Part shown: in pieces, positions 5,950-26,642 of the stretch
How positions within the stretch are numbered: position 1 is the stretch's first letter
Layout: each line of letters starts with the position of its first letter
Origin: a bacterium
GTDB taxonomy: Bacteria; Patescibacteriota; Minisyncoccia; Phycocordibacterales; Phycocordibacteraceae
Reading direction: 5' to 3'
Assembly (NCBI GenBank): GCA_021781865.1
Contig: JAJXVZ010000001.1
Span: forward strand, 1 to 34,262
Length of the DNA: 34,262 nucleotides
Position numbers and translations under genes: made by a program
Notes under the pieces: model-generated
The model's input: the letters and a program-made list of their open reading frames with translations, nothing else
Told to the model about the DNA's origin: nothing
Database searches by the model: none

Positions 5950-7256
5950 AAATTTCCCTCTTCCAAGGCATTCTATTTGCTGTTTTCGGTTTTGGTGCGA
6001 TAATTGGGCTCTTTGTCTTTACAACGCATACAGGGAATACGAATAATAGCAATACTATCGGCACCGTTGTTATTTGGGGAACGTTGCCCAAGGCGAATAT
6101 GCAAAACTTCCTCACCGAGATAGGTCAAACTGACCAAGCAATTAAGAATGTCTCATATGTTCAGGAAAATATATCCACCCTGCCGAATGATCTTTCCGCT
6201 GCTATTGCGACTAACAATGCTCCGGACCTCATTCTAGCTTCGCAGGAAGAACTCACATCAATTTCAAAATATCTTATGCCAATTCCGGTAGCAACACTTC
6301 CCACGAGCACATTCGTAAATACCTTTATTGGAGAAGGGAATCTTTTCGCCATCCCCGGGGGTAGTGGTTACTACGGAATACCATTTCTAGTTGATCCACT
6401 CGTACTGTATTCAAATCACACAATTCTTTCCTCTAATGGCATAGCGAAGCCTCCTACGACTTGGGAAGCGTTGATGGGGCTTGTACCAAATGTCGTATCT
6501 CTTACCCCCGCACAGCAGGTTACACGGGGTCTTATCGCGCTCGGCACGTACGACAATATCCACGATGCTCGTGGAATACTTTCTACCTTTTTCTTACAAG
6601 CAGGTGTTCCAATATCTTCATATACATCAAGTGGCAGTTTAGCAGCTGATCTAGGCACGCAGGGGACTTCAAGCGGAATACCACCAGGTGAATCGGTCAT
6701 TGGATTTTATACGCAATTCGCCGACCCATCGAAGGTTTCATATACTTGGAACGCCTCGTTGCCCGATTCGCAGCAAGCGTTTCTCGCAGGCGATCTTGCA
6801 CTTTATCTTGGGTACGCTTCTGAAGCACGTTTCTTCACGCAAGCGAATCCAAACCTCGATTTCGATGTTACTCCGATACCACAACCAGCGACCGCTACTA
6901 CAAAAAATGTTTATGGTCTTGTTTATGCATTCATGATTCCACGTGGAGCTGCGAATTCTTCAGGTGCGTATCAAGTCGCTGGGCTTTTCTCAAACTCGTC
7001 TGAACAGATTGCTGCCGCAGCGACGGGTCTCGCACCCGCGACCCTCAATCAACTTGAAGAACCCCCTACTGATCCAGTCAGTGCCGTTTCATATGCTGAA
7101 GCACTTTACGCAAATGGCTGGTTGTCCCCAGCGCCTGCTAGTACAGACACGGTGTTTTCAGGTATGATTGGGAATGTGATAAGCGGTCGTTCCTCGATTA
7201 GTATCGCTCTTTCTTCCGCAGAACAGGCATTAAACTCTTATTTGCAACAGCAATGA
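5946..7256 (+). CDS. extracellular solute-binding-protein-like protein (ABC-type SBP family 1 fold), N-terminal TM anchor, no cognate permease or ATPase nearby
   Basis: N-terminal hydrophobic helix 'ISLFQGILFAVFGFGAIIGLFVF'. 'APDLILASQEEL', 'YGIPFLVDPLVLYSN' and 'PPTTWEAL' resemble sugar-type SBP signatures. 4-nt overlaps with both neighbours. Confidence 0.6.
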   Translation: MKISLFQGILFAVFGFGAIIGLFVFTTHTGNTNNSNTIGTVVIWGTLPKANMQNFLTEIGQTDQAIKNVSYVQENISTLPNDLSAAIATNNAPDLILASQEELTSISKYLMPIPVATLPTSTFVNTFIGEGNLFAIPGGSGYYGIPFLVDPLVLYSNHTILSSNGIAKPPTTWEALMGLVPNVVSLTPAQQVTRGLIALGTYDNIHDARGILSTFFLQAGVPISSYTSSGSLAADLGTQGTSSGIPPGESVIGFYTQFADPSKVSYTWNASLPDSQQAFLAGDLALYLGYASEARFFTQANPNLDFDVTPIPQPATATTKNVYGLVYAFMIPRGAANSSGAYQVAGLFSNSSEQIAAAATGLAPATLNQLEEPPTDPVSAVSYAEALYANGWLSPAPASTDTVFSGMIGNVISGRSSISIALSSAEQALNSYLQQQ

Positions 7257-7861
7257 TCACACACGTTTTCACTACTATTCGTCGGAATGTGATTAAACTT
7301 TATCTCACTCCATTCCTTGTGTTTTTTCTTTTTTTGATAGGGGTTATACCTGTGTCTGTTCACGCTACAGGTAGTTATTGTGATGCCTCAATACCTTGTC
7401 CAGCTGGTGAGACTTGCTATATGCCGCAAGGAGGTCCTTTTGTGTGTGTCGAGGCAACAAACCCATCACCGACTAGTAATCTAAATCCGTCACCGACTAG
7501 TAATCCAAACCCATCACCGACTAGTAATCCAAGCTCTAGTAATAATCTTACTCCTGGCCCAAGCATCACCCTTATCAATCCGCTGAGTGGGGTCGATTGT
7601 AGTGCGGGCAATGGTAGTTGCTTAAATGCTTTTCTTCTTAACATCCTGCAATTCGTCATACTTATAGGTTCTATCGTTATTGTTTTAATGCTGGTGTTTG
7701 TTGGTTATAAATTCGTCGCGGCACAAGGTTCTCCAGAAAAAATAAAAGAAGCACGAAATATGCTCCTCTGGACCGTTATTGGCGCTCTAGTGCTCCTTGG
7801 GGCACAGGCGATAGCCATGGGTATTCAAGCGACGGTGACTGCACTCACAAGCGGTAGTTAA
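7253..7861 (+). CDS. pilin paralog P1: Cys-rich and Pro/Ser/Thr-repeat N-terminal region fused to a VirB2/TrbC-like two-helix pilin module
   Basis: Signal/anchor 'LTPFLVFFLFLIGVIPVSVHA', then CxxxxxCxxxxxC...C, then 3x NPSPTSN[LP]. The C-terminus has helix - 'AAQGSPEKIKEARNM' - 'LLWTVIGALVLLGAQAIA'. Confidence 0.65.
   Translation: MITHVFTTIRRNVIKLYLTPFLVFFLFLIGVIPVSVHATGSYCDASIPCPAGETCYMPQGGPFVCVEATNPSPTSNLNPSPTSNPNPSPTSNPSSSNNLTPGPSITLINPLSGVDCSAGNGSCLNAFLLNILQFVILIGSIVIVLMLVFVGYKFVAAQGSPEKIKEARNMLLWTVIGALVLLGAQAIAMGIQATVTALTSGS
7460..7531 (+). repeat. 3 x 24-bp in-frame tandem repeat (NPSPTSN[L/P]) inside P1
   Basis: The units are aacccatcaccgactagtaatcta, aatccgtcaccgactagtaatcca and aacccatcaccgactagtaatcca. 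They are read directly from the sequence and are in frame with CDS 7253. Confidence 0.9.
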
Positions 7862-7863
7862 AT

Positions 7864-8151
7864 ATGAATTTAGGTGGTGGCACAAGCTTCAAAAATTTCG
7901 TCGGGAGTGGCACGACGGGTGTTATTGGCATTATTAATACTTTTATCGTGCCAGTTATCTTCACACTTGTATTTGCCGTTTTTGTCTGGAGTATAGTGAA
8001 TTATTTTTTTATCCATGGCGGTGAGGAGGCAAAACGAGAAGAGGGTAGACAATTTATTCTTTGGGGAATAATTGGAATGGTAATACTTTTCGCCGTATGG
8101 GGAATATTGAATATACTGTTATCCACGCTCGGCATTACGCCATCTGCGTGA
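7864..8151 (+). CDS. pilin paralog P2 (VirB2/TrbC-like two-helix small membrane protein)
   Basis: 95 aa. Helix 'IINTFIVPVIFTLVFAVFVWSIVNYF', charged loop 'GGEEAKREEGRQF', then 'ILWGIIGMVILFAVWGILN'. 2-nt gap after P1. Confidence 0.7.
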   Translation: MNLGGGTSFKNFVGSGTTGVIGIINTFIVPVIFTLVFAVFVWSIVNYFFIHGGEEAKREEGRQFILWGIIGMVILFAVWGILNILLSTLGITPSA

Positions 8152-8169
8152 TATGGCATACTTTGGCAT

Positions 8170-8571
8170 ATGAGATCCGTAATTCGTTCCTTCGTTCTTT
8201 TATCGGCATTTGCCCTACCGGCATTTGCATTTGCTCTTCAAATATCTGTAAGTATTGGCATTGGTAACAGTTGCGGTGCGAGTAGTATATGCCAGGTCGC
8301 AAATACTATCCTTTTTCTCATAAATGAGGTCCTAGTGCCGCTCATTTTTGCGATCTCATTCTTGGTTTTTCTCTACGGCGTTTTTAAGCAGTATATATGG
8401 AGTAGGGGAGATGAGGCGGCGGTCACAAAAGGGCACACACTCATTCTTTGGGGAATTATTGGTTTTGTGGTGATGGTGTCGCTCTGGGGGCTCGTGAATG
8501 TTGTTGCAAATACGTTCGGACTTGGCGGCTATACGGCACCACCCTTACCCGTATCGTATCCAACGTATTAA
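8170..8571 (+). CDS. pilin paralog P3 (signal peptide plus two-helix pilin module)
   Basis: Signal peptide 'MRSVIRSFVLLSAFALPAFAFA', a Cys pair (CGASSIC), 'INEVLVPLIFAISFLVFLYGVF', loop 'SRGDEAAVTKGHT', then 'LILWGIIGFVVMVSLWGLVN'. Confidence 0.7.
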   Translation: MRSVIRSFVLLSAFALPAFAFALQISVSIGIGNSCGASSICQVANTILFLINEVLVPLIFAISFLVFLYGVFKQYIWSRGDEAAVTKGHTLILWGIIGFVVMVSLWGLVNVVANTFGLGGYTAPPLPVSYPTY

Positions 8572-8578
8572 TCAATAT

Positions 8579-9043
8579 ATGAGACATTCAGCGCTTACAA
8601 AAATTCTTATCGTTGAATTTCTTCTTCTTTGCTTCGTCGAAATTTTTTCCAGCCCAATGATATTGTTTGCTGCCGTCAAGCCGCCCTGCTTAAGTGGTTA
8701 TATTGGTATAAACTGCACTCCCGTCTCTTCCGTCTCACCTAGTTCCAGCGGCATCAATACCTATTATTTACAAAATTATTCAACGAGCATCATTAATATT
8801 ATTAATGGAATCGTCGCACCAGTGATGCTTGCCGTTGCATTTGTCTTCTTTCTCTACGGTGTGTATAAATATTTTTTCTTAGGCGCAACGAATGAGTCTG
8901 AACGTGCAAACGGTCGACAATTTGTTCTCTGGAGTATTATTGGTTTTGTTGTCATATTTTCAATCTGGGGACTCGTAGGGCTCGTAGGTAGCACATTCGG
9001 TCTTTCGTCGGGCGGTTACGCGCCTCCATATCCGACGTTGTAG
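8579..9043 (+). CDS. pilin paralog P4 (signal peptide plus two-helix pilin module)
   Basis: The internal ATG at 8579 avoids the overlap with P3 that the track start at 8498 creates. 'IINGIVAPVMLAVAFVFFLYGVYKYF', loop 'ATNESERANGRQF', then 'VLWSIIGFVVIFSIWGLVG'. Confidence 0.65.
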   Translation: MRHSALTKILIVEFLLLCFVEIFSSPMILFAAVKPPCLSGYIGINCTPVSSVSPSSSGINTYYLQNYSTSIINIINGIVAPVMLAVAFVFFLYGVYKYFFLGATNESERANGRQFVLWSIIGFVVIFSIWGLVGLVGSTFGLSSGGYAPPYPTL

Positions 9044-9072
9044 AGACTATCCCCATAGGGTGCGGAACTCAG

Positions 9073-9100
9073 TTGACTCAATTCATAAGGACATTATAAT
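9073..9100 (+). promoter_or_regulatory. candidate sigma70-type promoter inside the pilin array (TTGACT-16 nt-TATAAT)
   Basis: TTGACT at 9073-9078 and TATAAT at 9095-9100. They lie in the only sizeable (83 nt) gap of the array, 27 nt upstream of the P5 ATG. Confidence 0.45.
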
Positions 9101-9126
9101 TACCTTGTTACTCACTTATCGACATT

Positions 9127-9504
9127 ATGAAAAAATTTCTCGCCCTTTCTTCAGGAATCCTTGCGGTATTTGCATTACCTCTCATCTCACTTGCTGCGAT
9201 CAATAACGTTTCGGACGCTGGTAATTTTATCATCAATACAATTAATGGCGTTATTGTTCCAGTCATATTTGCCTTGGCGTTTATTGTTTTTCTTTGGGGC
9301 GCATTTTCCACATTTATTATTGGCGCGAACAGCGATGATGTAAAAAAGAAAGGAAAGAATCTCATGCTCTACAGCCTTATCGGTTTTGTGGTAATGGTTT
9401 CCATTTGGGGTCTTGTAAACGCTCTTACCGGTACGATTGGTTTTGGTAACAGTTCTGGCATTACGGGTGGTACACCTAAGGCAGGGGTTCAAATCGGCGG
9501 ATAA
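9127..9504 (+). CDS. pilin paralog P5 (signal peptide plus two-helix pilin module)
   Basis: Signal peptide 'MKKFLALSSGILAVFALPLISLA', 'INGVIVPVIFALAFIVFLWGAF', loop 'ANSDDVKKKGKNL', then 'MLYSLIGFVVMVSIWGLVN'. Confidence 0.7.
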   Translation: MKKFLALSSGILAVFALPLISLAAINNVSDAGNFIINTINGVIVPVIFALAFIVFLWGAFSTFIIGANSDDVKKKGKNLMLYSLIGFVVMVSIWGLVNALTGTIGFGNSSGITGGTPKAGVQIGG

Positions 9505-10733: not shown

Positions 10734-10963
10734 TAGATTCATGATGGTTCAACGCCGTGTGAACATTAAGTTCACTTTAACGGTTCGTTTTCAGGCATAA
10801 AGCATACATTACTAATCCCATCGAGCCCGCAGGGTGTCCAGTGAAAAACTCAAAAAGAAGTACTTAACGAAAAGTTGTAGAGTCACTCCTCAGTAAATGC
10901 TCTCAAAAGTGTTCAGGAGGTGCGTTAGATATTACACAAAATCTGACTCTGTCCCATGTCTTG

Positions 10964-18362: not shown

Positions 18363-21137
18363 ATGGAATCCGTACCAAAATTGTCCACGCCTGAGGAGGA
18401 GCTTGCTTACTTGCGTGAACAGGTGCTCCGCAAAGAAGCGGAACTTACTAGGCGTGGAAGGGAACCGGGGATACTCGAGCGCTCTCATATTATTTCCGAA
18501 CAGATTCACGCACATCACATAGCCCCGGAGGAAGTTTTGACACCCGGATATCGCATCAGCGAAACAATGCAAAAGAGCGAAGCAGAGGCGATACTTGCTG
18601 AGCTAAATCTTGGAGAGGACAAACAGGTGATCAAAGGTCTAGAGAGAACTATGAGTGAGAAGGGTATAAAAAACGCACTATCGGTGCTTGAGAAACTTCA
18701 CGATCCACATATTACGGATGACTTCCACCGATATCTTGTACGTTACATCGCGGCGAAGCTTCCAATGCTTGGCGTCAATGAAAAGGCACCGCGTTTCCAA
18801 GCGTTGAGGATGACGCTCTACGAGGTTACGCTCCCAGAACCGAAAAGTGCGGAAACGAACCAGCATGTGAAGACGCTTAAGGAACTTATCTCCGGGATGG
18901 AGCAATTGTATGCGGGGCTTCTTTCGGTCGAGAATGCGGTGATTGGTGAACCTCGCTATTACGCGCTCGAGCTTGCCGTTCCAATGGAAGGTTCTGAACT
19001 CCAATTTTATGTGGCGGTTCCGAATGGAAAGCGCGATCTTTTCGAAAAACAACTCCTCGCTATATTTCCTGATGCGCAAGCGGTACCACAACCATTCGAT
19101 TACAATATCTTTTCTTCACACGGTACCTCGATTGCTTCGACAGCGACGTTTGCAGATGATCCTGCACTACCTCTGAAAGACTATACTGATTTCGACTATG
19201 ACCCAATCAACGCGATTACAAATGCATTCGCCAATATAGAATCCATGGGCGAAGGTGCCGCACTTCAGATAATTATCGAGCCCCGCGCGGAACGGCATGT
19301 GAAGCATTATGCGAAAATTCTTAAGGCTCTGCGCAAGGGTGAAAAACGTATAACAGCATTTAGTACGCCGGAAACAACACTTGGAGAACTTACTCGAGAT
19401 TTTGGAAAAATTCTCTTCTCAAATAAACCCAAGGATGAACAAAAAGCAAAAGAGGCCGAAATACGTCAGATTGAAGAGAACAAGACATATATCGAGCAAG
19501 TTGAAAAAAAGATTGAAGCGCCAATTGTTGGTGCAACAATACGACTCGTTGTTTCCTCTTCCGATGAGCATAAGGCGGATCGAATACTCGGCACGATTGA
19601 GGCAGCATTCAATCAGTTCTCGAATACACGAGGGAACAGACTTGTGTTCAAACGTATTCCGCCAGCAGCACGACATGCGCAAGCGGTTCTCGACGAATTT
19701 TCATTTCGTTTACCTGGCTCCTCAGTCCTTCCGTTATCGATACGGGAACTTACGACTATTTATCATTTCCCGCCAACAGGCATCAAATCTTCGCCACATT
19801 TGAGGCAAGTACGCTTTACGCACGCACCTGCACCGCTTTTACTCCCGCAAACAGGAATGCTTCTTGGTGTTAACACGTATCGTGGGCGGGAGACACGTGT
19901 TTACCTTGACTCTGAAGATCGTCTGCGTCATCTCTACATAATCGGTCAGACCGGTACCGGTAAAACCGGGCTCATGAAATCGATGATTATCCAGGACATC
20001 GAAAACGGAGAAGGTTGCTGTTTCATAGATCCGCACGGTTCCGATATTCTAGACATCCTTGCCGCCGTACCACCTGAGCGTTATAAAGACGTTATCTATT
20101 TCGATCCCGCAGATCTTTCGCGACCATTTAGTCTCAATTTTCTTGAATATGATGTATCACGTCCCGAGCAGAAGACATTCATCGTGAATGAACTCCTGAT
20201 GATCTTTCGTCGACTCTACGGCGACGTGCCGGAAAGCATGGGTCCTGCATTCGAACAGTATTTTCGCAATGCGACGCAACTTGTGATGGAGGATCCCGCG
20301 AGCGGTTCAACTATTCTCGATATCGCGCGCGTGCTCTCTAACAACGAATTTCGTCGCGAGAAACTAGCGAAAAGCATGAATCCAATTGTAAATCAGTTCT
20401 GGAACGAAATTGCGGCAAAAGCTGGTGGCGAAGCGGCGCTTGAAAATATTGTTCCGTATATCACCAACAAATTTGATGATTTTACCGCGAACGATTTTAT
20501 TCGCCCCATCGTTGGACAACAAGAATCATCATTCAAGTTCCGCGAAGTAATGGATACGAAGAAAATCCTTCTCATAAATCTTTCCAAGGGTCGTCTTGGC
20601 GAAAAAAACGCAAACCTTCTCGGGCTTATTATCGTCGGGAAACTTTTCATGGCAGCGCTCTCTCGCGCCGATAATCCTCGTGCACCATACCAACCTTTTT
20701 ATCTATATATTGACGAGTTTCAAAACGTAACTACAGACTCCGTTCCCGGTATTCTTTCTGAAGCGCGTAAGTATAAACTCTCGCTCACGGTGGCGCATCA
20801 ATTTCTCAACCAGATCGAAGAGAAAACCCGTGATGCGATTTTCGGTAATGTCGGTAATATGGTGATTTTCCGTGTAGGTGAAGAAGATGCCGAATTTTTC
20901 TCAAAACAGTTTGCGCCCGTTTTTGAGACACTCGATTTCGTTAACATAGAAAATCGCAACGCCTACGCGAAGATTCTCGTGCGTGGTGTGCCACAAAAGC
21001 CGTTTGATATGAAAACACCAAATTTACCTGCACAAAATTTGGCGCAAGTGGACGATCTTATTCATCTTTCCTCGATCACATACGGTCGCGACCGTGCTAC
21101 AGTTGAAAACACGATTCGCGAGCGTTATCTCTCGTAA
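18363..21137 (+). CDS. T4SS-type P-loop ATPase (VirD4/TraD coupling-protein-like or VirB4-like, FtsK/HerA superfamily) with a large non-membrane N-terminal domain
   Basis: 924 aa. Walker A 'GQTGTGKTG' (nt 19944-19970), 'CCFIDPHG', Walker B 'LYIDEFQ' (nt 20703-20723) and 'RKYKLSLTVAHQFLNQI'. No hydrophobic TM segment is seen in the first ~500 aa. Confidence 0.75.
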   Translation: MESVPKLSTPEEELAYLREQVLRKEAELTRRGREPGILERSHIISEQIHAHHIAPEEVLTPGYRISETMQKSEAEAILAELNLGEDKQVIKGLERTMSEKGIKNALSVLEKLHDPHITDDFHRYLVRYIAAKLPMLGVNEKAPRFQALRMTLYEVTLPEPKSAETNQHVKTLKELISGMEQLYAGLLSVENAVIGEPRYYALELAVPMEGSELQFYVAVPNGKRDLFEKQLLAIFPDAQAVPQPFDYNIFSSHGTSIASTATFADDPALPLKDYTDFDYDPINAITNAFANIESMGEGAALQIIIEPRAERHVKHYAKILKALRKGEKRITAFSTPETTLGELTRDFGKILFSNKPKDEQKAKEAEIRQIEENKTYIEQVEKKIEAPIVGATIRLVVSSSDEHKADRILGTIEAAFNQFSNTRGNRLVFKRIPPAARHAQAVLDEFSFRLPGSSVLPLSIRELTTIYHFPPTGIKSSPHLRQVRFTHAPAPLLLPQTGMLLGVNTYRGRETRVYLDSEDRLRHLYIIGQTGTGKTGLMKSMIIQDIENGEGCCFIDPHGSDILDILAAVPPERYKDVIYFDPADLSRPFSLNFLEYDVSRPEQKTFIVNELLMIFRRLYGDVPESMGPAFEQYFRNATQLVMEDPASGSTILDIARVLSNNEFRREKLAKSMNPIVNQFWNEIAAKAGGEAALENIVPYITNKFDDFTANDFIRPIVGQQESSFKFREVMDTKKILLINLSKGRLGEKNANLLGLIIVGKLFMAALSRADNPRAPYQPFYLYIDEFQNVTTDSVPGILSEARKYKLSLTVAHQFLNQIEEKTRDAIFGNVGNMVIFRVGEEDAEFFSKQFAPVFETLDFVNIENRNAYAKILVRGVPQKPFDMKTPNLPAQNLAQVDDLIHLSSITYGRDRATVENTIRERYLS

Positions 21138-21143
21138 TAGACT

Positions 21144-23786
21144 ATGTCATTAGAAAAGATTCCACGATCGGGAAAGGGGAAATCAATACAGCCGAGCGTA
21201 ATGAATCAAGCGTTTGAAAAAGCTGGAGTTGCGGGAAATAAAGAGGAGTCAGAACGAAGATTCGGTACGTCCATTGGAGAAGAGGTTTTTGAGACGATAA
21301 AAAATATTCCAAAAACAATATTAGAGCGGTCGGAGGAGATACCGATTGAACTCGCAAAAATTTATAAGAATGAAAGACCACCGAAGGATATCACGGACCT
21401 ATATTTGAAACTTCCTCCGCAAAAGCGATCAAGTTATCTTCAATTGTTAACTGATAAGAGAAATGGAAAGGCATCTAGAAAACCAGTAAACAAAAAAAAT
21501 AGACATCCTCGACACCAGGAAAGGGGAAAGAGGTCTCGAACCGTTCAGATGATCGCTGGGAAAGATAAATCAGACCTTGTGAACCCCTGGGGAGTTTATG
21601 GTAAGCGTCGCGAGACTGCTCAGGAAGAGTTTAAGAGAATGTATCCATCTGGACAACCGATACCATTGGATACTCTTAAAAAATATAAATTTTTGATGAA
21701 TGAACAAATCAAAAGTTTCGGTTCTGGGGATGTTGATGAGCAGAAAAGAATCGCTTCAGAAATAGAATCATTCATTATCGAACAAAGGGCGAAAATAGCT
21801 GAGAACTTATCTTCTCAAGACCTTTTTAGTGGTGTTGGGGTAGTAAGGGGGCAGGTGAATAGCGACGACACAAAGAGGGCACGAATAAAAAAGCTTCGTG
21901 ACGATATCGCTACGTTCGAATTGGAAATCGCACATCCAACATACCCACGCACACATGACGTTATTGAGAGGGATGCTCTCGCGGCTGAAGAAGAGTTACG
22001 AAATTTGGAATTAACATTGAGGACGGGAAGTGTCGAGAACAAAGTTCCCGCGACTGGGGACGAATTGCGAGAGCCAGATTTAGCAACTCGATCCGTCCTG
22101 GAAGAAGGGATGCTCATTGCAAACCCCGACCTTGCGCTTGATTCGAAACACGCACGAAGGACGCAAGAATACACACCGAGAGAGTGGCGCAATAAATTAC
22201 GGGTACTTCTTGAAAAATTTGGCGTGAATGAGCGCGATAAGAGTCTAGAGAAATATTCAAAAAATCGTTTGGATGAATTAGATGCTGAATCAAAAAAGCT
22301 AGGAAGAGGGGAAAATATAATTCGTTCACTGGGCGAGAAATACAATAAGTTTAACTTTTTACAGAAACTCGGTATTGGTCTCACGCTTGGCGTGGGAGCG
22401 GCAGCATTTACAGGCGTCTCATTTCCCGTGGCAACCGCCTGTACATTCGGTCTTGGCGTGCAACGTGCATTCGGTATGGCGAGCATGTTCTTGAAATTTG
22501 AGAAACAACTACAAGAATCAACGGAAGGTAAGTCAGAAGGTTTTATCACGCGACGAGGATGGTATAAAGCTTTTGCTGAGAAGACGAAAAATCGGCAGAA
22601 GGAAACTGCAATACTTATGGCCGTTGGATATTCTCTCCTAATGAGTGCTGCTATTAAGGAGACAGTACAGATAGTGAACGAATCTCTCTTAGGTGAGCGG
22701 ATACATGAATGGCTCGGGTATACACTTGGACATACTACTTCTGCTTCTGCACCAGAAGCAACCGCGCCCCTTTCCGTAACACCAGATAATGTCTCTCTTC
22801 CTACTGAAATAGTCCAACAGAATCACGTAGGAATGATGACTGGAATGCCAACTATTGACGCGTCAACCGGACATGGCTATGAGTACATGGCTAAGAAACT
22901 CTGGGAAGAATTGAACGCGAGAGGTATTAAATTGCCTGCAAATGCGAATCCACACAGTGACCTCGCAAGACTTCTTGCGGCTCACGATGATGCATCCATT
23001 AATAAAGTCGTACAGCAGATTGCTAGTGACTCAAGACATGCATTTTCCCATGCTAACGGGATGAGTGTTCGCATTGACCCAAACACACACATGACAATCG
23101 GTACAGACGGACAGATTCATTTGTCAATAGGGAAGGAAAACTTCGTTCATGCGCCAGTGAATGCCACCGTAACACCACCCTATCATGCAGTGGCGTCGAC
23201 TCAGATTCCATCTGTGAATGTAACCCATCATGAAAGCATGATCGCTCATTCGAGTACTCACCAGACACACGAGGTTGGATCTGTCGACAATGCCATGTCA
23301 ACAGAACGAGTCGTTCACCCGCACATGACAACGGAACACATTACTCAACCAGTATCTACTGATTCAGTAGTACACGATGGTACCGGTGGTGTGGTGCATG
23401 ATGGAGAAGGAAATCCGGTCTACGAAAGAAGAACTTATCATAAGGTATCCGATCGCGTATCGACCCCTGTACACGCGCAAGAAGTATTCACGAATGTCCA
23501 CAACATCCATGTTAATTTGACTGAAACACATGGATACTCAAATGGTGAGGGGGTTCTTTATGTCATGGGTGGCGATAAAGCCGTTATAGATAATCAGGCT
23601 CAGGATTATGCGCTAACACACCATGTGCCCGTATTCGTTGATAAATCATACAAACTTCTAGGCGTCATAAATGTTCCAAGGGTTGTCGAGTACGTTCCAA
23701 CTAATAACGGGTCGTTGGAAATGGTTATCCACTCTGGTCCGTCATGGATCCCAAATCCGAAAAACTTTACGAAACGTATTTTCTAA
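21144..23786 (+). CDS. large hypothetical bitopic membrane protein (charged coiled-coil-like N-terminal ~400 aa, hydrophobic segments at aa ~406-450 and 488-504, His-rich C-terminal ~350 aa)
   Basis: 880-aa ORF starting 6 nt after the ATPase stop. 'LGIGLTLGVGAAAFTGVSFPVATACTFGLGV' and 'AILMAVGYSLLMSAAI' are the only hydrophobic stretches. No family recognised. Confidence 0.6.
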   Translation: MSLEKIPRSGKGKSIQPSVMNQAFEKAGVAGNKEESERRFGTSIGEEVFETIKNIPKTILERSEEIPIELAKIYKNERPPKDITDLYLKLPPQKRSSYLQLLTDKRNGKASRKPVNKKNRHPRHQERGKRSRTVQMIAGKDKSDLVNPWGVYGKRRETAQEEFKRMYPSGQPIPLDTLKKYKFLMNEQIKSFGSGDVDEQKRIASEIESFIIEQRAKIAENLSSQDLFSGVGVVRGQVNSDDTKRARIKKLRDDIATFELEIAHPTYPRTHDVIERDALAAEEELRNLELTLRTGSVENKVPATGDELREPDLATRSVLEEGMLIANPDLALDSKHARRTQEYTPREWRNKLRVLLEKFGVNERDKSLEKYSKNRLDELDAESKKLGRGENIIRSLGEKYNKFNFLQKLGIGLTLGVGAAAFTGVSFPVATACTFGLGVQRAFGMASMFLKFEKQLQESTEGKSEGFITRRGWYKAFAEKTKNRQKETAILMAVGYSLLMSAAIKETVQIVNESLLGERIHEWLGYTLGHTTSASAPEATAPLSVTPDNVSLPTEIVQQNHVGMMTGMPTIDASTGHGYEYMAKKLWEELNARGIKLPANANPHSDLARLLAAHDDASINKVVQQIASDSRHAFSHANGMSVRIDPNTHMTIGTDGQIHLSIGKENFVHAPVNATVTPPYHAVASTQIPSVNVTHHESMIAHSSTHQTHEVGSVDNAMSTERVVHPHMTTEHITQPVSTDSVVHDGTGGVVHDGEGNPVYERRTYHKVSDRVSTPVHAQEVFTNVHNIHVNLTETHGYSNGEGVLYVMGGDKAVIDNQAQDYALTHHVPVFVDKSYKLLGVINVPRVVEYVPTNNGSLEMVIHSGPSWIPNPKNFTKRIF

Positions 23787-23799
23787 CACCTATGTTATA

Positions 23800-24105
23800 A
23801 TGCTCTTTATGCAAGATGAACTCACTGCTCTCATCGCCGCCGATCTCGGTATTAAGGATCTCCCGGTTGCCGAGCAACAAACAATCATTGCACAGTTTGG
23901 CGAGATTGCACTCAAAGCGGCAACCTTGTCAGTGATAGGGAAACTTGCTAGTGATAAGCGCGATGAATTCACTAAACTCGCAGAAACTGGTGACGCAACA
24001 GCGCTTAAGACCTTCCTTGACCGAGAAGTCCCTGGGCATGAGAATATCACGCGAGCCGCCGTTGCCGAGGAGGTAAAACGATTTAGAGCTTTTCAAGCCA
24101 CGTAG
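23800..24105 (+). CDS. small acidic helical protein (~100 aa), reminiscent of small DUF-type proteins common in CPR genomes
   Basis: 'MQDELTALIAADLGIKDLPVAEQQTIIAQFGEIALKAATLSVIGKLASDKRDEFTKLAETGD'. The start is the ATG at 23800 or 23809. The track start at 23671 overlaps the upstream gene. Confidence 0.5.
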   Translation: MLFMQDELTALIAADLGIKDLPVAEQQTIIAQFGEIALKAATLSVIGKLASDKRDEFTKLAETGDATALKTFLDREVPGHENITRAAVAEEVKRFRAFQAT

Positions 24106-24137
24106 TATACTGCTACTGTACATAATAGCTATTACAT

Positions 24138-24674
24138 ATGAAACCAACTCAAACTGGAATCGCCATCACACTTGCACTTGTCGTGGTCATAATGTTTTTT
24201 GTTCTCCCAAGTCTTTCGGTTTTCGGAACACCCACCTCATCAGGTACATCAGCTTCCGGAGCCACTATTAATAACAATACTCAAACCGCAACAACTACCA
24301 CTATGCCTAACCAAACCAACACTACTCCGCCCGTGACTCAACTTATAGAGCAAGATGAGGTTATTGGAACAGGCGCTACTGCCGTGGCGGGTGACACTGT
24401 AACCGTAAATTATGTCGGCTCGCTTACCGACGGCACAGTCTTTGACGCCTCTGCTGATCATGGGACTTCGGGTTTCACCTTTGTCCTGGGTGCTGGAAAT
24501 GTTATCAAGGGTTGGGATGAAGGTATTGTTGGGATGAAGGTAGGTGGTAAACGCAAACTTATCATTCCCGCATCGCTCGCGTACGGTAATCAGGCAGTTG
24601 GGAATATCATCCCGGCGAATTCCACACTTATTTTTGAAGTGGAACTCTTAAAAGTTAAAAAAGCAGGAAGCTAA
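24138..24674 (+). CDS. FKBP-type peptidyl-prolyl cis-trans isomerase, membrane-anchored with a Thr/Asn-rich linker
   Basis: 'VTVNYVGSLTDGTVFDAS', 'FTFVLGAGNVIKGWDEGIVGMKVGGKRKLIIPASLAYG' and 'LIFEVELLKV' are canonical FKBP_C motifs. N-terminal TM 'IAITLALVVVIMFFVL'. Confidence 0.9.
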   Translation: MKPTQTGIAITLALVVVIMFFVLPSLSVFGTPTSSGTSASGATINNNTQTATTTTMPNQTNTTPPVTQLIEQDEVIGTGATAVAGDTVTVNYVGSLTDGTVFDASADHGTSGFTFVLGAGNVIKGWDEGIVGMKVGGKRKLIIPASLAYGNQAVGNIIPANSTLIFEVELLKVKKAGS

Positions 24675-24682
24675 GTATCATA

Positions 24683-24711
24683 TTGACAATTGTTATATTG
24701 TAGTTTAAAAT
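24683..24711 (+). promoter_or_regulatory. candidate sigma70-type promoter (TTGACA-17 nt-TAAAAT) for the beta-barrel gene pair
   Basis: TTGACA at 24683-24688 and TAAAAT at 24706-24711, about 88 nt upstream of the ATG at 24800. Confidence 0.5.
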
Positions 24712-24799
24712 ATAAAAGGAAACGACGAACAAAATATAGAGTCGTTCAGTGTGTGATCATTGGTAACTAAACAACTTAAAAAGAGGAAGGAGGTGTTCT

Positions 24800-25333
24800 A
24801 TGCGTCACTGGGCCATATTCGTGATGGCACTTGGTATGTGTGTCTCTTCTTATACTGCTGCTGCTTCTTCTAGCCAGAGCAGGAAGGGAGAGCTCATACT
24901 GTACTTTGGGGAAACTCGGGTCAATTCTTACGTGGACCCCAAAAGCCTGAGTGTCTCTGCAGATTTCAGGCAGAGAATTTCACCGGGTGCCGAGTATTCG
25001 ATTATGCTTATTAACGAAGGGAACCCGCACGGTTTTCCCAAGCGAGATGGTATCGCCGGGGAGATGTGGTGGCGGTTGCCTTTCACTGACGCGAGTCATC
25101 GTCTGGTGATTACGTTAGGCACCGGGCCCTACGTGTATTACGCGACCACCGTGAAGAAGGGAGCCACACCAGGTGGGTACTCCGATGAACATCGACTGGG
25201 TTGGCTCGTGAGCGCGAATGTTGGGTACAACATGAGTCGACATCTCACGCTCAATGTGGGGTGGATTCGTGTCGGGACCGGGAATAGCACCGATACGGAT
25301 ATTCCTCGCGTGGGCATTGGGTACAGAGAGTAA
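24800..25333 (+). CDS. exported small beta-barrel-like protein, paralog A (OmpX/OmpW/PagL-size OMP-like)
   Basis: 177 aa. Signal peptide 'MRHWAIFVMALGMCVSSYTAAA', alternating hydrophobic beta-strand patterning, and C-terminus 'VGIGYRE'. A perfect SD (AGGAGGTG) precedes the ATG. Confidence 0.6.
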   Translation: MRHWAIFVMALGMCVSSYTAAASSSQSRKGELILYFGETRVNSYVDPKSLSVSADFRQRISPGAEYSIMLINEGNPHGFPKRDGIAGEMWWRLPFTDASHRLVITLGTGPYVYYATTVKKGATPGGYSDEHRLGWLVSANVGYNMSRHLTLNVGWIRVGTGNSTDTDIPRVGIGYRE

Positions 25334-25347
25334 CAGGAGGAAGTTCC

Positions 25348-25845
25348 ATGAAGAACGTCATCATCATATTTTTGATGATGGCCGGTGCATTTGTGATCAC
25401 CACAGATGCGTTGGCCGGTGAGGTAGCTGTTTCGGGAGGTACAGTAACTGCTACAGACACCATGGAAGCAGGTCGGGAAGGAACTGCATTGTCCATCAAT
25501 TATCAAGGGCGACTCACGTCTGCGGCGAGGTGGTCAGTAGGATGGATGCAGGAAGATTTTTCACAGGGCTTTCTGAAGAGGAGGGGCGTAGTGACGGAAG
25601 TCATGTTGGAACTTCTCCCGAGTACAAACCGGTTCAACGTTTCTCTTATCCTAGGCCCCTATGCTTATCATGCAAGCGGTAATTATGGAAAAGGGGATGG
25701 ATATGGGATTGCGTTGCAGTCTGGTTTTGACGCCACGTATAAACTTAATAAGAATCTCACGTTCGATGCGGGGTTTCGGAATACCATGACCACAACCACA
25801 TCGAACACGGACCTGATTCTTATAGGGTTGGGCTACAGGAAATAG
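25348..25845 (+). CDS. exported small beta-barrel-like protein, paralog B
   Basis: 165 aa. Signal peptide 'MKNVIIIFLMMAGAFVITTDALA'. Shares 'LGxGPYxYxA' and the C-terminal 'IGLGYRK' with paralog A. SD AGGAGG lies 7 nt upstream. Confidence 0.6.
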   Translation: MKNVIIIFLMMAGAFVITTDALAGEVAVSGGTVTATDTMEAGREGTALSINYQGRLTSAARWSVGWMQEDFSQGFLKRRGVVTEVMLELLPSTNRFNVSLILGPYAYHASGNYGKGDGYGIALQSGFDATYKLNKNLTFDAGFRNTMTTTTSNTDLILIGLGYRK

Positions 25846-25861
25846 TGTGCCCAATCTATTT

Positions 25862-25894
25862 AAAGCCGCACGTTATCAACGCGCGGCTTTTTTA
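25862..25894 (+). terminator. rho-independent terminator after the beta-barrel gene pair
   Basis: Stem aaagccgcacg, loop ttatcaa, stem cgcgcggcttt (one mismatch), with the stem-closing T's running into a TTTTTT tract. Confidence 0.7.
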
Positions 25895-25942
25895 TAAGCA
25901 AAAATATTTCTAACTTTAGAATGTTCATTCAGCTATTCAGAA

Positions 25943-25977
25943 TAAAAAATGGGTGACGGATTGCAACCGTCACCCAT
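25943..25977 (-). terminator. rho-independent terminator for the lipoprotein gene
   Basis: 11-bp perfect stem atgggtgacgg/ccgtcacccat with loop attgcaa. On the minus strand it is followed by a T-run (the complement of aaaaaa at 25944-25949). Confidence 0.7.
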
Positions 25978-25988
25978 TACTATAGCTA

Positions 25989-26621
25989 TTACTGTCCGGG
26001 TGGAAATGGCATATAACCACCCCCATTGATGTATCCCGACATTGGTTTGTTTGAACTGTCTGCCGCTTTCGGAAGTGTCGTTCGACCATTCCCAAACCAT
26101 GGGATAATCTCAATTCCCCCCAAAATATGATAATGGTGATTGGCGTCTCTCACCTGCTGTTCCACACAGTATCCTTGAGCACTTTTCTCACTCGTGCTTT
26201 GCCGATAGCGACCCGTGTTCATTCCAGCAGTGAAGCCGTACCCAAGCCCGCCGAGCATATATCGGACGATATCCGCTCCAGGAAATGCTGCTGCAAAACC
26301 TCCTTCGCCAACTGCAATTGCCAGAGCAGACCATCCGCCCTCTTTCGCTATCGCCTGTGCCCAGCCCGGGAGTTGATGAAAAAGTTTCCCCTGGCAGTAC
26401 TTGTCCAAGTAGAGAATTTGGGTTCTCTCCACCTTTGACCATCTCGCCTGTTTCCCGTTTGAAGCAGGGACGTAAGGGATGTCGCCTGCTGCCGGTACGA
26501 CAGCATACGCGCCAGAAAACTTTTCCCCCCGATCCCCGATCGTGCTAGTGCTGGCGCATGCCCCCAATAATCCGAGGGTTGTTATCACCAGAACAATCTC
26601 GACGACCGACTTTACCGTCAT
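25989..26621 (-). CDS. hypothetical lipoprotein
   Basis: Lipobox 'LGLLGAC' after a hydrophobic h-region, and a Gly-rich 'GGLGYGFTAGMNTG' segment. I prefer the ATG at 26619-26621 (GGAGG 5 nt upstream) over the GTG at 26633. Confidence 0.6.
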   Translation of the reverse strand: MTVKSVVEIVLVITTLGLLGACASTSTIGDRGEKFSGAYAVVPAAGDIPYVPASNGKQARWSKVERTQILYLDKYCQGKLFHQLPGWAQAIAKEGGWSALAIAVGEGGFAAAFPGADIVRYMLGGLGYGFTAGMNTGRYRQSTSEKSAQGYCVEQQVRDANHHYHILGGIEIIPWFGNGRTTLPKAADSSNKPMSGYINGGGYMPFPPGQ

Positions 26622-26642
26622 AAAGACCTCCACTTATCTATA

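Follow-up and report, generated by a model that had tools for sequence, protein, structure and literature searches.

Classical outer-membrane (OM) β-barrels are a hallmark of double-membraned cells and organelles, where they are inserted via BamA/Omp85, and BAM recognizes the terminal aromatic residue of outer-membrane barrels. In vitro, barrels of only 8 strands, among them OmpA-TM, OmpX, and PagP, are able to fold into a lipid membrane without BAM. Phage "morons," for example lambda lom, which encodes an 8-stranded OMP of the Ail/Lom type, are autonomous promoter-gene-terminator units placed between resident genes. In Gram-negative bacteria, 8-8 "multibarrel" OMPs have been documented (Solan, Pereira, Lupas, Kolodny, and Ben-Tal 2021, PNAS; PMC8346858). 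CPR bacteria, on the other hand, are described as monoderm (PMC11665869, PMC12102498, 10.1101/2021.05.31.446380), and our search of the literature on OMPs, porins, or BamA in Patescibacteria/Parcubacteria found no earlier report of such barrels.

Here we analyzed a 34,262-nucleotide stretch of bacterial DNA (the window) in which two adjacent genes encode candidate OM-type barrels. The genome belongs to the Parcubacteria/Paceibacteria (CPR), with a sister genome in Candidatus Parcubacteria and relatives in Minisyncoccota, Kaiserbacteria, and Paceibacterota, in agreement with an earlier note on this DNA that had presumed a CPR host. We are confident that the two genes form an autonomous insertion of ∼1.24 kb encoding two Sec-exported paralogs of the OMP superfamily. 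ORF1 (24800..25333, + strand; 177 aa) begins with a Sec-type signal peptide (approximately residues 1 to 23/26), after which an 8-stranded OMP-type β-barrel is predicted. ORF2 (25348..25845, + strand; 165 aa) begins with a signal peptide ending in TDALA, followed by GE and by a divergent paralogous barrel, the fold of which is assigned from homology. The two are paralogs over their full length (24% identity, E=4e-12). They are separated by a stop codon, a spacer of 14 nt that carries a separate Shine-Dalgarno (SD) sequence, and the second signal peptide, so that the arrangement differs from two barrels carried in one polypeptide with a ∼20-aa linker.

The expression signals of the unit can be read directly from the sequence, and they recur in a diverged strain (L021) and, in part, in a sister species (L012). 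A sigma-70-type promoter (24683..24711, + strand) reads TTGACA-17-TAAAAT and matches the consensus at 11/12 positions; its counterparts are TTGACA-17-TACAAT in L021 (11/12) and TTGACA-16-TATAAT in L012 (12/12). The SD of ORF1 (24788..24795, + strand) is AGGAGGTG, with the ATG 4 nt downstream, and that of ORF2 (25335..25340, + strand) is AGGAGG, with the ATG 7 nt downstream; the SD string aggaggtgttctatg is found again in L021 and in the remnant of the unit in L012. The unit ends at an intrinsic terminator (25862..25896, + strand) with a 13-bp stem containing one mismatch, a 3-nt loop, and a U-run, whose hairpin (25862-25890) folds at -16.4 kcal/mol (z=-3.0). This terminator is kept in L021 and 3' of the ORF2 remnant in L012. 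The earlier note had described the promoter, the two tandem ORFs with signal peptides, the strong SDs, and two strong terminators, and our analysis bears out all of these elements, with the second terminator on the − strand. Folding of the 5'UTR of the unit was no better than that of shuffled sequences (z=0.09), and an Rfam search of the unit and its 5'UTR returned only noise.

How did the unit come to lie at this site? To its left lies a resident gene for a membrane-anchored FKBP-type PPIase (24138..24674, + strand), the final + strand gene of a conserved T4SS-associated block. To its right lies a convergent lipoprotein gene, best read as 25989..26621 (− strand; 210 aa), which encodes the lipobox LLGAC that had been noticed before and a Gly-rich hydrophobic segment. 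The lipoprotein gene has its own terminator hairpin (25948..25978, − strand), a perfect 12-bp stem with a folding energy of -20.9 kcal/mol (z=-6.2). In L016, L018, and L020, the convergent FKBP and lipoprotein genes are ∼80 bp apart, and the only element in the gap is this shared resident terminator. Since CPR genomes exist in which the FKBP and lipoprotein genes stand back to back, the barrel genes constitute an insertion of ∼1.24 kb and the lipoprotein is resident. Alignment of the flanks to the empty site of L020 places the insertion at approximately 24700..25940 (+ strand), comprising the promoter -10, the 5'UTR, ORF1, ORF2, and the terminator. The promoter -35 box is found in the empty site of L020 as well, so that it either belongs to the resident site or was left behind there by a deletion. 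Thus, the empty-site comparison upholds the earlier idea of an acquired unit, here at a conserved syntenic site, but removes the lipoprotein from the cassette in which it had been included.

Several observations concern the lipoprotein and the ends of the insert. The lipoprotein gene adjoins FKBP and TGT in genomes that lack barrel genes, and it has 24 homolog clusters, whose named sources are all CPR (Kaiserbacteria, Paceibacterota); searches of Pfam, PDB, and PHROG gave no match. We considered the lipoprotein as a partner of the barrels and rejected it as a member of the cassette. In L006, the barrel gene has a 208-aa neighbor that bears no relation to the lipoprotein. We saw neither an integrase nor a transposase, and no terminal repeats that were convincing; the one candidate for transposon-like ends, a 20-nt inverted repeat of 75% identity around the insert, is probably due to chance. 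Like a phage moron, the CPR unit is self-contained (-10, SDs, and terminator), is intergenic, and carries small OM barrels as cargo. Unlike a moron, it has no phage context: PHROG gave no match, viral contigs contained no relatives, and the flanks are conserved chromosomal genes, so that a phage or moron origin found no support.

Base composition says little about foreignness. The GC content is 53.4% for ORF1, 48.4% for ORF2, and 52.4% for the lipoprotein gene, against a window mean of 45.9%. For the insert of ∼1.24 kb as a whole it is 48.4%, a value equaled or exceeded by 13% of windows of the same size, and its tetranucleotide distance is unremarkable, with 59% of windows equally or more distant. 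The GC3 of ORF1 (0.584, z=3.5) is the sole outlier and the highest among the 28 genes of the window, with ORF2 at z=2.2 and the resident lipoprotein gene at z=1.9. The description of a GC-richer cassette thus holds only in part, and the GC argument for foreign origin is weak.

We then compared ORF1 and ORF2 with known barrel families. ORF1 scores above the gathering cutoff of Pfam PF13505 (OMP_b-brl, clan MBB; 30.0 bits versus 28.7), ORF2 has no Pfam match above cutoff, and 7/9 family members match PF13505 at E≤1. An AF2 model of ORF1, built on a 9-sequence alignment, has 8 strands (pLDDT 80.6, pTM 0.74), and the best Foldseek match of this model is the OmpA TM domain (TM 0.71/0.73 and 0.66/0.83), with NspA, OprF-N, Ail, and OmpX among the further top matches. 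The model is that of ORF1; for ORF2, the fold is taken from its homology to ORF1 and to HMMs of diderm barrels. These data support placing both proteins in the outer-membrane β-barrel superfamily, as the earlier note had proposed, with ORF1 predicted to be an 8-stranded barrel nearest to OmpA-TM, NspA, OprF-N, Ail, and OmpX. The likeness to classical 8-stranded OM barrels (OmpA-TM, NspA, the OprF N-domain, and OmpX/Ail) lies in the predicted fold and strand number (TM 0.6-0.8), whereas sequence identity is just 10-18%. In contrast to classical OM barrels, all four loops of the CPR barrels are very short (6-8 residues), and it is in the loops that conservation is highest rather than lowest. At E≤1, no match was obtained to the more specific models, OmpA_membrane, Ail_Lom, OmpW, and PagL, a profile search of PDB sequences gave no match at E≤10, and NCBIfam gave nothing meaningful. 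Membership in the OmpA family was rejected, since ORF1 and ORF2 do not match OmpA_membrane, the resemblance is in fold only, and the CPR proteins end at the barrel, without the C-terminal peptidoglycan-binding domain of OmpA; the terminal aromatic of classical OM barrels is likewise missing. The kinship to PagL and OmpW suggested earlier is not supported either, as their Pfam models gave no match at E≤1 and the fold matches are weaker than those to OmpA and NspA: TM is just 0.44-0.54 for the lipid A deacylase PagL (2erv), which also trails OmpX, and ∼0.55 in Foldseek for OmpW/AlkL.

The clear sequence homologs of ORF1 and ORF2 are 8-8 multibarrel OMPs of the type documented in PMC8346858, for example Cupriavidus pinatubonensis WP_140952621.1. 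The family comprises 585 cluster representatives, mostly of ∼330 aa with two domains; the majority are fused diderm members, 8-8 double barrels with a classical terminal Phe, and the named carriers are Burkholderiales (Caballeronia, Cupriavidus, and Burkholderia). Profile E-values to the diderm relatives reach 1e-50, and HMMs of the diderm barrels score ORF1 at 104 bits and ORF2 at 60-62 bits (N- and C-barrel). In the model of one fused relative, P0009 (8+8 strands, ∼25-aa linker, pLDDT 90.6), each half matches OmpA-TM (TMt 0.72-0.83); the whole model compared with 14-16-stranded barrels gave TM ∼0.2, and we rejected the idea that the fused relatives are 16-stranded barrels. The CPR proteins share with the fused ∼330-aa relatives the motifs NEG[NH], [KH]RDG, GxGPYxY, and GxGYR, barrels predicted to be 8-stranded and OmpA-like (by homology in the case of ORF2), and the pairing of one full polar-rim barrel with one degenerate barrel. 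Between ORF1 and ORF2, the common motif is LxxGPYxYxA, a correction of the LGxGPYxYxA read earlier, as ORF2 has LILGPY. They differ from the fused relatives in that the CPR version consists of two genes with two signal peptides, whereas the fused version is one chain with a ∼25-aa linker, in that the CPR C-termini are charged, and in that the CPR host is a presumed monoderm.

Within the family, single-barrel forms are rare, and a rough NJ tree sets them apart as a separate clade in 21/25 bootstraps. Both ORF1 and ORF2 fall in this clade, and their scores against the N- and C-barrel HMMs are equal, so that we rejected their origin by the splitting of a fused gene. The outlying single-barrel member P0185 has a sigma-54 activator as its only neighbor, a weak hint that P0185 is non-CPR. 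The rough tree and this weak clue from gene context are what bears on the direction of transfer, and on their basis the single-barrel forms might derive from diderms. As for function, one fused relative lies in a surE-nlpD-rpoS/GspH context, and the neighborhoods of the Cupriavidus and Caballeronia homologs offered no functional clue.

The two paralogs differ at one end of the barrel. ORF1 carries the full family set of polar rim motifs (NEGNP, KRDG, T116, D129-x-H131, and D165-T-D167), whereas ORF2 matches at 5/16 positions and has lost most of these residues (QEDFS, KRRG, and D-G-Y). Standard OMP topology would put the rim residues at the surface end of the predicted barrel, where its loops are. 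With all conserved polar residues retained at the surface end, ORF1 probably bears the binding or catalytic function of the family, and ORF2, without them, would probably be a structural partner. The fused diderm proteins show a parallel asymmetry, with an N-barrel that is conserved and a C-barrel that is degenerate.

Is the unit maintained, or is it a non-functional or near-neutral acquired passenger that is being lost and has no role in the CPR cell? The same idea has been put forward for OMBB genes attributed to archaea (PMC8346858). In L012, the orthologous site on a 148-kb contig holds an ORF1 ortholog (46% identical), beside which only out-of-frame remnants of ORF2 are left; L020, another sister, lacks the whole unit and may retain the -35 box as a scar. 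Pattern scans of 185,579 species genomes and of 241 M metagenome records, both pattern limited and of low sensitivity, returned only one relative and nothing beyond known loci, respectively, and matched Parcubacteria loci exclusively. The barrel genes are very rare in CPR and dispensable. Their dN/dS values (0.24 for ORF1 and 0.23 for ORF2, at dS ∼0.35) are 2-4x higher than those of neighboring genes (0.06-0.13, with the lipoprotein gene at 0.13). Although these observations fit a passenger, dN/dS values of ∼0.23 indicate purifying selection on both genes. In addition, the ORFs, SDs, near-consensus promoter, and terminator are all intact in two diverged strains, and ORF1-type genes are intact in lineages only 37-58% identical, where none of the 15-16 family rim residues has been lost. 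We consider the passenger explanation improbable. The unit goes back to an ancestor shared by two or more sister species, probably by three, and the earlier suggestion of a recent acquisition is at odds with an orthologous site in a species so diverged and with purifying selection.

A second alternative is that the products are secreted as initially soluble barrels (toxins, pore-formers, or lipid carriers) that are not stably embedded in a membrane. A monoderm offers no obvious membrane for an OMP, charged C-termini would fit a soluble protein, and CPR bacteria take lipids and nutrients from their hosts (PMC11665869). The surface of the barrels argues otherwise. At lipid-facing columns, defined as those that are hydrophobic in the diderm relatives, 40/43 residues of ORF1 (93%) and 36/42 of ORF2 (86%) are hydrophobic, compared to a diderm mean of 0.90 ± 0.04, and just one residue (ORF1) or none (ORF2) is charged. 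Lumen columns are polar or Gly, with hydrophobic residues at just 5/46 (ORF1) and 4/46 (ORF2). A hydrophobic outside with a polar, Gly-rich inside is the opposite of what a soluble barrel would show. Moreover, a monomer of 8 strands leaves practically no room for a pore, and we detected no similarity to known β-pore-forming toxins. Soluble barrels are therefore distinctly unlikely.

A third alternative is that an outer membrane, or a layer resembling one, exists in this lineage together with BAM, and that ORF1 and ORF2 are ordinary OMPs. The proteins do carry the full set of sequence hallmarks expected of integral OM barrels, namely a signal peptide, a belt of hydrophobic residues around a polar lumen, and a last strand with G-x-G-Y-R. 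They end, however, in ..VGIGYRE (ORF1) and ..IGLGYRK (ORF2), so that this remainder of the β-signal is kept while the terminal aromatic is replaced by a charged residue, as had been noted before. A terminal aromatic (F, W, or Y) is present in 72% of fused proteins versus 35% of single-barrel proteins (Fisher p=0.004; p=0.045 with lineages collapsed). Its loss is not a trait of the family, since close relatives terminate in F, Y, or H (P0003 GIGFKF, P0005 KFY, and P0006 KFH), and the aromatic ends of P0003 and P0005 favor ordinary OMPs. Against them, CPR genomes both sister and further removed share the synteny in all other respects but lack the small insertion, which argues against a resident OM because the presence of an OM would not flip between sister species. 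We saw no other OM-type gene in the 34-kb window, the T4SS next to the unit is monoderm in type, and published work treats the phylum as monoderm (PMC12102498, PMC11665869). Taken together, we regard ordinary OMPs as very unlikely. Finally, an assembly or binning artefact, a concern raised in the earlier note, would here mean a proteobacterial fragment joined to a CPR contig. The GC3 of ORF1 speaks for it, but it has a negligible chance of being true: five assemblies made independently, three of them from ENA samples and two of them NCBI MAGs, contain the identical unit with both junctions, which excludes an assembly chimera, the unit recurs in the diverged strain L021 and at the orthologous site of the L012 species, and the tetranucleotide composition of the insert is ordinary.

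Our preferred reading, which we hold to be probable as a whole, combines an acquired two-barrel unit with BAM-independent membrane insertion. The products of ORF1 and ORF2 would undergo Sec export and signal-peptide cleavage, and the mature barrels would then fold into a lipid membrane without BAM. Folding of this kind fits the missing terminal aromatic that BAM recognizes; taken by itself, this mode of action is a tentative proposal, with a fair share of doubt attached. Which membrane would receive them is a matter of speculation, our best guess being the zone where the bacterium touches a host cell, such as a diderm host's outer membrane. The bacterium's own cytoplasmic membrane would be a less likely target, as a β-barrel there is to our knowledge unprecedented and would be potentially leaky. 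The full scenario, in which a CPR episymbiont's self-inserting barrels embed in the OM of a diderm host at the contact site, with ORF1 bearing the rim site and ORF2 as its degenerate partner, is doubtful as it stands.

These results show barrel genes under purifying selection, with a conserved strong promoter, in a lineage for which a single membrane has been described. They also draw attention to an uncharacterized family of 8-8 double-barrel OMPs that occurs in Burkholderiales and in numerous metagenomic bacteria; one of its two barrels bears a polar site, at the predicted surface end, whose conservation is unusual. If the host-OM reading were true, the pair could be an anchor or a device for access to lipids or nutrients, and these would be the first classical OM barrels to work outside a BAM-containing envelope. 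If the genome is truly without BAM, the locus would be a test case for barrel assembly without BAM in vivo and for the CPR cell's choice of membrane, its own or that of its host, and it would bear on the part that barrel genes may have in the attachment of CPR bacteria to their hosts.

The two barrel genes lie in tandem on the + strand, ORF1 at 24800-25333 (177 aa) and ORF2 at 25348-25845 (165 aa), and are followed by a convergent lipobox ORF on the - strand (25989-26633/26621). Both have strong Shine-Dalgarno (SD) sites, read from the sequence as AGGAGGTG for ORF1 (24788-24795, +) and AGGAGG for ORF2 (25335-25340, +), and the best sigma-70-like site of the region, TTGACA-17-TAAAAT (24683-24711, +; 11/12 match), stands upstream. 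Two terminator hairpins lie 3' of ORF2, one with a U-run at 25862-25890 (+; -16.4 kcal/mol, z = -3.0) and a second at 25948-25978 (-; -20.9 kcal/mol, z = -6.2). The two proteins are 24% identical over their full length (E = 4e-12) and end in GIGYRE (ORF1) and GLGYRK (ORF2). Sequence and folding leave these genes, signals and C-termini largely as the earlier note had described them. The public gene calls (P0001, 169 aa, for ORF1; P0007, 156 aa, for ORF2) start at internal Met codons and thus truncate the signal peptides of both proteins; the stretches concerned are 24800-24826 and 25348-25374. The longer ORFs are the better choice because they are supported by SD sites and kept in two relatives, a diverged strain (L021) and a sister species (L012). 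The ~88-nt 5' UTR of the operon carries a short hairpin, AACGAC..GTCGTT (24720-24750), whose position is conserved across three lineages (the window, L021 and L012) and whose sequence is partly changed. As a whole, the 5' UTR folded no better than shuffles (z = 0.09) and had no match in Rfam.

Does the lipoprotein gene belong to the same cassette, as had been claimed? It does not, as it adjoins the FKBP gene in three barrel-less genomes: L016 (Kaiserbacteria), L018 (Paceibacterota) and L020, a close relative whose UvrB is 90% identical. The gene order in all three is VirB4-like, large protein, DUF5663, FKBP convergent with lipoprotein, TGT and UvrB, with ~80 bp between the FKBP and lipoprotein genes and no barrel homolog at this site. 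In L016 and L018, the spacer holds the shared terminator hairpin alone. The lipoprotein gene and the 25948-25978 hairpin are therefore resident, and by this comparison of gene orders the barrels are an insertion of ~1.24 kb (~24700-25940). In L020 (6622-6699), TTGACAATGGTTA, which matches the -35 region of the window's promoter, stands directly before the shared hairpin; this stretch is a -35 box that was already resident and used by the insert, or else the scar of the unit's deletion. The lipoprotein family comprises 24 clusters, lacks a Pfam domain and, where a source is named, comes from Kaiserbacteria or Paceibacterota. The wider block (18363-26621; VirB4-like DUF8128 protein, a protein of ~770-940 aa, DUF5663, FKBP convergent with lipoprotein, TGT, UvrB and UvrA) is common to these Kaiserbacteria- and Paceibacterota-labelled genomes, and its large protein (21144-23786) evolves fast (62% identity in L020 versus 90% for VirB4). 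An imperfect 20-nt inverted repeat (75% complementary; 24642-24661 and 25907-25926) flanks the insert; it is AT-rich, its left arm is the coding end of FKBP, and it is probably a chance match.

Contrary to one suggestion of the earlier note, the acquisition is not recent. In the diverged strain L021 (dS ~0.35), the arrangement is that of the window. The orthologous site in the L012 species (5' of lipoprotein-TGT-UvrB) carries an intact ORF1-type gene, 46% identical, with a perfect promoter (TTGACA-16-TATAAT). This gene runs into an out-of-frame, internally deleted ORF2 remnant (L012:10474-10638; ..GLVTEVMWKLLPG..FRSTMTRTTSNTNMVLVGLGYRR, then stop) followed by the same terminator as in the window, and an orphan ORF2-like signal-peptide fragment (L012:~10797-10950) lies behind the same 'aggaggtgttctatg' SD. 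The dN of ORF1 is 3-4.4 times as high as in TGT and UvrB, and at that rate orthologs would be expected to be about 46% identical; the shared site places the unit before the species split. One lineage has retained it, a second (L012) has lost half of it, and a third (L020) lacks it. Comparison of the window with L021 (NG86) gave dN/dS values of 0.24 for ORF1 and 0.23 for ORF2, which indicate purifying selection on both barrel genes, looser than on their neighbors (lipoprotein, 0.13; TGT, 0.12; UvrB, 0.06). A nearly neutral passenger, a reading that the looser constraint and the losses would suit and the purifying selection would not, is unlikely.

Base composition, which had been taken as a sign of foreign origin, is a weak one. 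The GC content is 53.4% in ORF1, 48.4% in ORF2 and 52.4% in the lipoprotein gene against 45.9% in the window; that of the whole insert is 48.4%, a value equaled or exceeded by 13% of equal-sized windows, and its tetranucleotide distance is ordinary. The sole compositional outlier is the GC3 of ORF1 (0.584; z = 3.5), and the resident lipoprotein gene is likewise GC3-rich (z = 1.9). Elsewhere, a 197-kb Minisyncoccota-labelled contig (L006) carries a single barrel gene in an unrelated context. A PEP-CTERM-motif protein is encoded three called genes 3' of it (L006:11366-11833); PEP-CTERM/exosortase systems are mostly known from diderm bacteria. Pattern scans of low sensitivity (185,579 species genomes; 241 M metagenome records) returned Parcubacteria loci only, and we found no viral or PHROG link of the barrel unit.

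ORF1 matched Pfam OMP_b-brl (PF13505) at 30.0 bits, above the gathering cutoff of 28.7; ORF2 had nothing above cutoff in Pfam. The AlphaFold2 model of ORF1, built from a 9-sequence alignment, consists of an N-terminal helix (the signal peptide) and then 8 long strands (pLDDT 80.6, pTM 0.74). Its top Foldseek matches in the PDB are classical 8-stranded outer-membrane barrels, namely, OmpA TM (TM 0.71/0.73 and 0.66/0.83), NspA, OprF-N, Ail and OmpX; PagL and OmpW matched more poorly than the OmpA-type barrels. A word-indexed search returned 6 relatives of ORF1 and 2 of ORF2, and an exhaustive HMMER profile search returned 585 cluster representatives, most of them ~320-340 aa long with two profile matches each and mostly a C-terminal Phe. 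The model of one such fused protein, P0009, has 8+8 strands joined by a ~25-residue linker (pLDDT 90.6), and each half matches OmpA-TM (TMt 0.72-0.83, rmsd 2.6-3.9 Å). A single 14-16-stranded barrel was rejected for P0009 (whole-protein TM ~0.2, rmsd ~20 Å), so most of the family belongs to the "8-8" class of double-barrel OMPs reported by Solan et al. 2021 (PMC8346858). Named carriers of the fused family (P0009-P0154) are Caballeronia, Cupriavidus and Burkholderia chromids, with the annotation "hypothetical protein" (e.g., L025:5899-6912, Cupriavidus pinatubonensis WP_140952621.1); many members are metagenomic, one of them in a gammaproteobacterial surE-nlpD-rpoS/GspH context. In P0145 (644 aa, ENA metagenome), the two barrels are preceded by double zinc-ribbon domains at the N terminus and by what looks like a TM region; such a union of cytoplasmic-type domains with outer-membrane barrels is odd and may be a gene-call fusion.

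We rejected the idea that ORF1 and ORF2 are a split fused gene. They score equally with the N- and C-barrel HMMs (ORF1, 104/103 bits; ORF2, 60/62 bits), and in a rough NJ tree all single-barrel proteins group together (21/25 bootstraps), apart from the N-barrels (21/25); the pair is therefore an independent duplication within this small clade. Both proteins are additions to an established superfamily, found in a type of cell where they were not expected.

Is the membrane surface of these barrels preserved? At the lipid-facing belt, defined as the alignment columns where 70% or more of the diderm barrels have a hydrophobic residue, ORF1 is hydrophobic in 40/43 columns (93%) and ORF2 in 36/42 (86%), compared to a diderm mean of 90 ± 4% (minimum, 79%), with one charged residue in ORF1 and none in ORF2. 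Lumen-type columns are hydrophobic in only 5/46 (ORF1) and 4/46 (ORF2), with Gly, Ser, Thr and charged residues plentiful. As read from the alignment, this pattern is that of an integral-membrane barrel, from which a solubilized derivative would differ. That the proteins are soluble secreted barrels is distinctly unlikely.

A conserved polar set comprises N72-E73-G74-[NH]75, [KH]81-R82-D83-G84, T116, D129-x-H131 and D165-T166-D167. On the strand boundaries of the ORF1 model, all of these residues are predicted in or beside the S1-S2, S3-S4, S5-S6 and S7-S8 connections, the loop (surface) end in standard OMP topology. In the fused proteins, the set is near-invariant in the N-barrel (N-E-G-H, H-R-D-G, D-T and D-x-H, at the loop end) and degenerate in the C-barrel (mean maximum column frequency, 0.78 versus 0.54). 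Such short conserved loops, unusual for OMPs, suggest from sequence conservation a binding or catalytic site in the fused family. ORF1 and the other single-barrel proteins agree with the N-consensus at 11-12/16 positions, keeping the full polar set, and ORF2 at 5/16. The CPR pair has thus arrived on its own at the layout of the fused proteins, a complete barrel with a degenerate partner.

Among top matches, a terminal F/W/Y is found in 93/129 fused proteins (72%) and 6/17 single-barrel proteins (35%; Fisher P = 0.004, or P = 0.045 with close lineages collapsed). In close relatives of ORF1 the C-terminal residue is F (P0003), M (P0004) or Y/H (P0005/P0006); the terminal W of P0027, the ORF1-like protein of the L012 species (GIGKVW), arose from the deletion that fused the gene to the ORF2 remnant. 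Otherwise the last strand keeps its G-x-G-Y-R pattern. These mixed termini make the charged ends of ORF1 and ORF2 a lineage-specific state in a clade whose terminal position is apparently relaxed.

The host is a CPR bacterium. The window lies within DAICAU010000003.1 (GCA_027422725.1), and its context is CPR-like (four T4SS pilin paralogs, DUF8128/VirB4-like ATPase, DUF5663, membrane-anchored FKBP, TGT, UvrABC and GyrA). The four pilin paralogs (PF18895) are consecutive at 7253-9504, and the ORFs at 8170-8571 and 8498-9043 overlap. A sister species, with TGT and UvrB 85-90% identical, is titled "Candidatus Parcubacteria bacterium," and the source of P0004 is a "Minisyncoccota bacterium" (the NCBI name of the CPR phylum). 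Patescibacteria as a phylum have been described as monoderm (PMC11665869), with a T4SS of monoderm type that lacks outer-membrane core components (PMC12102498), and CPR have been grouped with the monoderm Chloroflexi clade (10.1101/2021.05.31.446380). Ordinary OMPs within an unrecognized diderm-like envelope would fit the intact belt and run against this monoderm assignment; we regard them as very improbable. An assembly artifact can practically be dismissed, since five independent assemblies carry the identical unit with both junctions, which excludes a chimera.

Small 8-stranded barrels are able to fold into membranes without BAM in vitro. Our data support the main idea of the earlier note, namely that a CPR genome carries OMP-type barrels which are foreign in origin and whose BAM signal is degenerate. 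An autonomous two-gene unit has been inserted there; its 8-stranded barrels belong to the OMP superfamily, keep an intact membrane belt and are homologous to diderm 8-8 OMPs. In its CPR host the unit is under purifying selection, and sister lineages dispense with it. We propose that both proteins would be exported by Sec and then fold into a membrane without BAM, which would account for the relaxation at the terminal position. ORF1 would bear the surface-rim function of the family, with ORF2 as its partner. Our preferred guess is that the target membrane may lie in the host-contact zone, e.g., the outer membrane of a diderm host.
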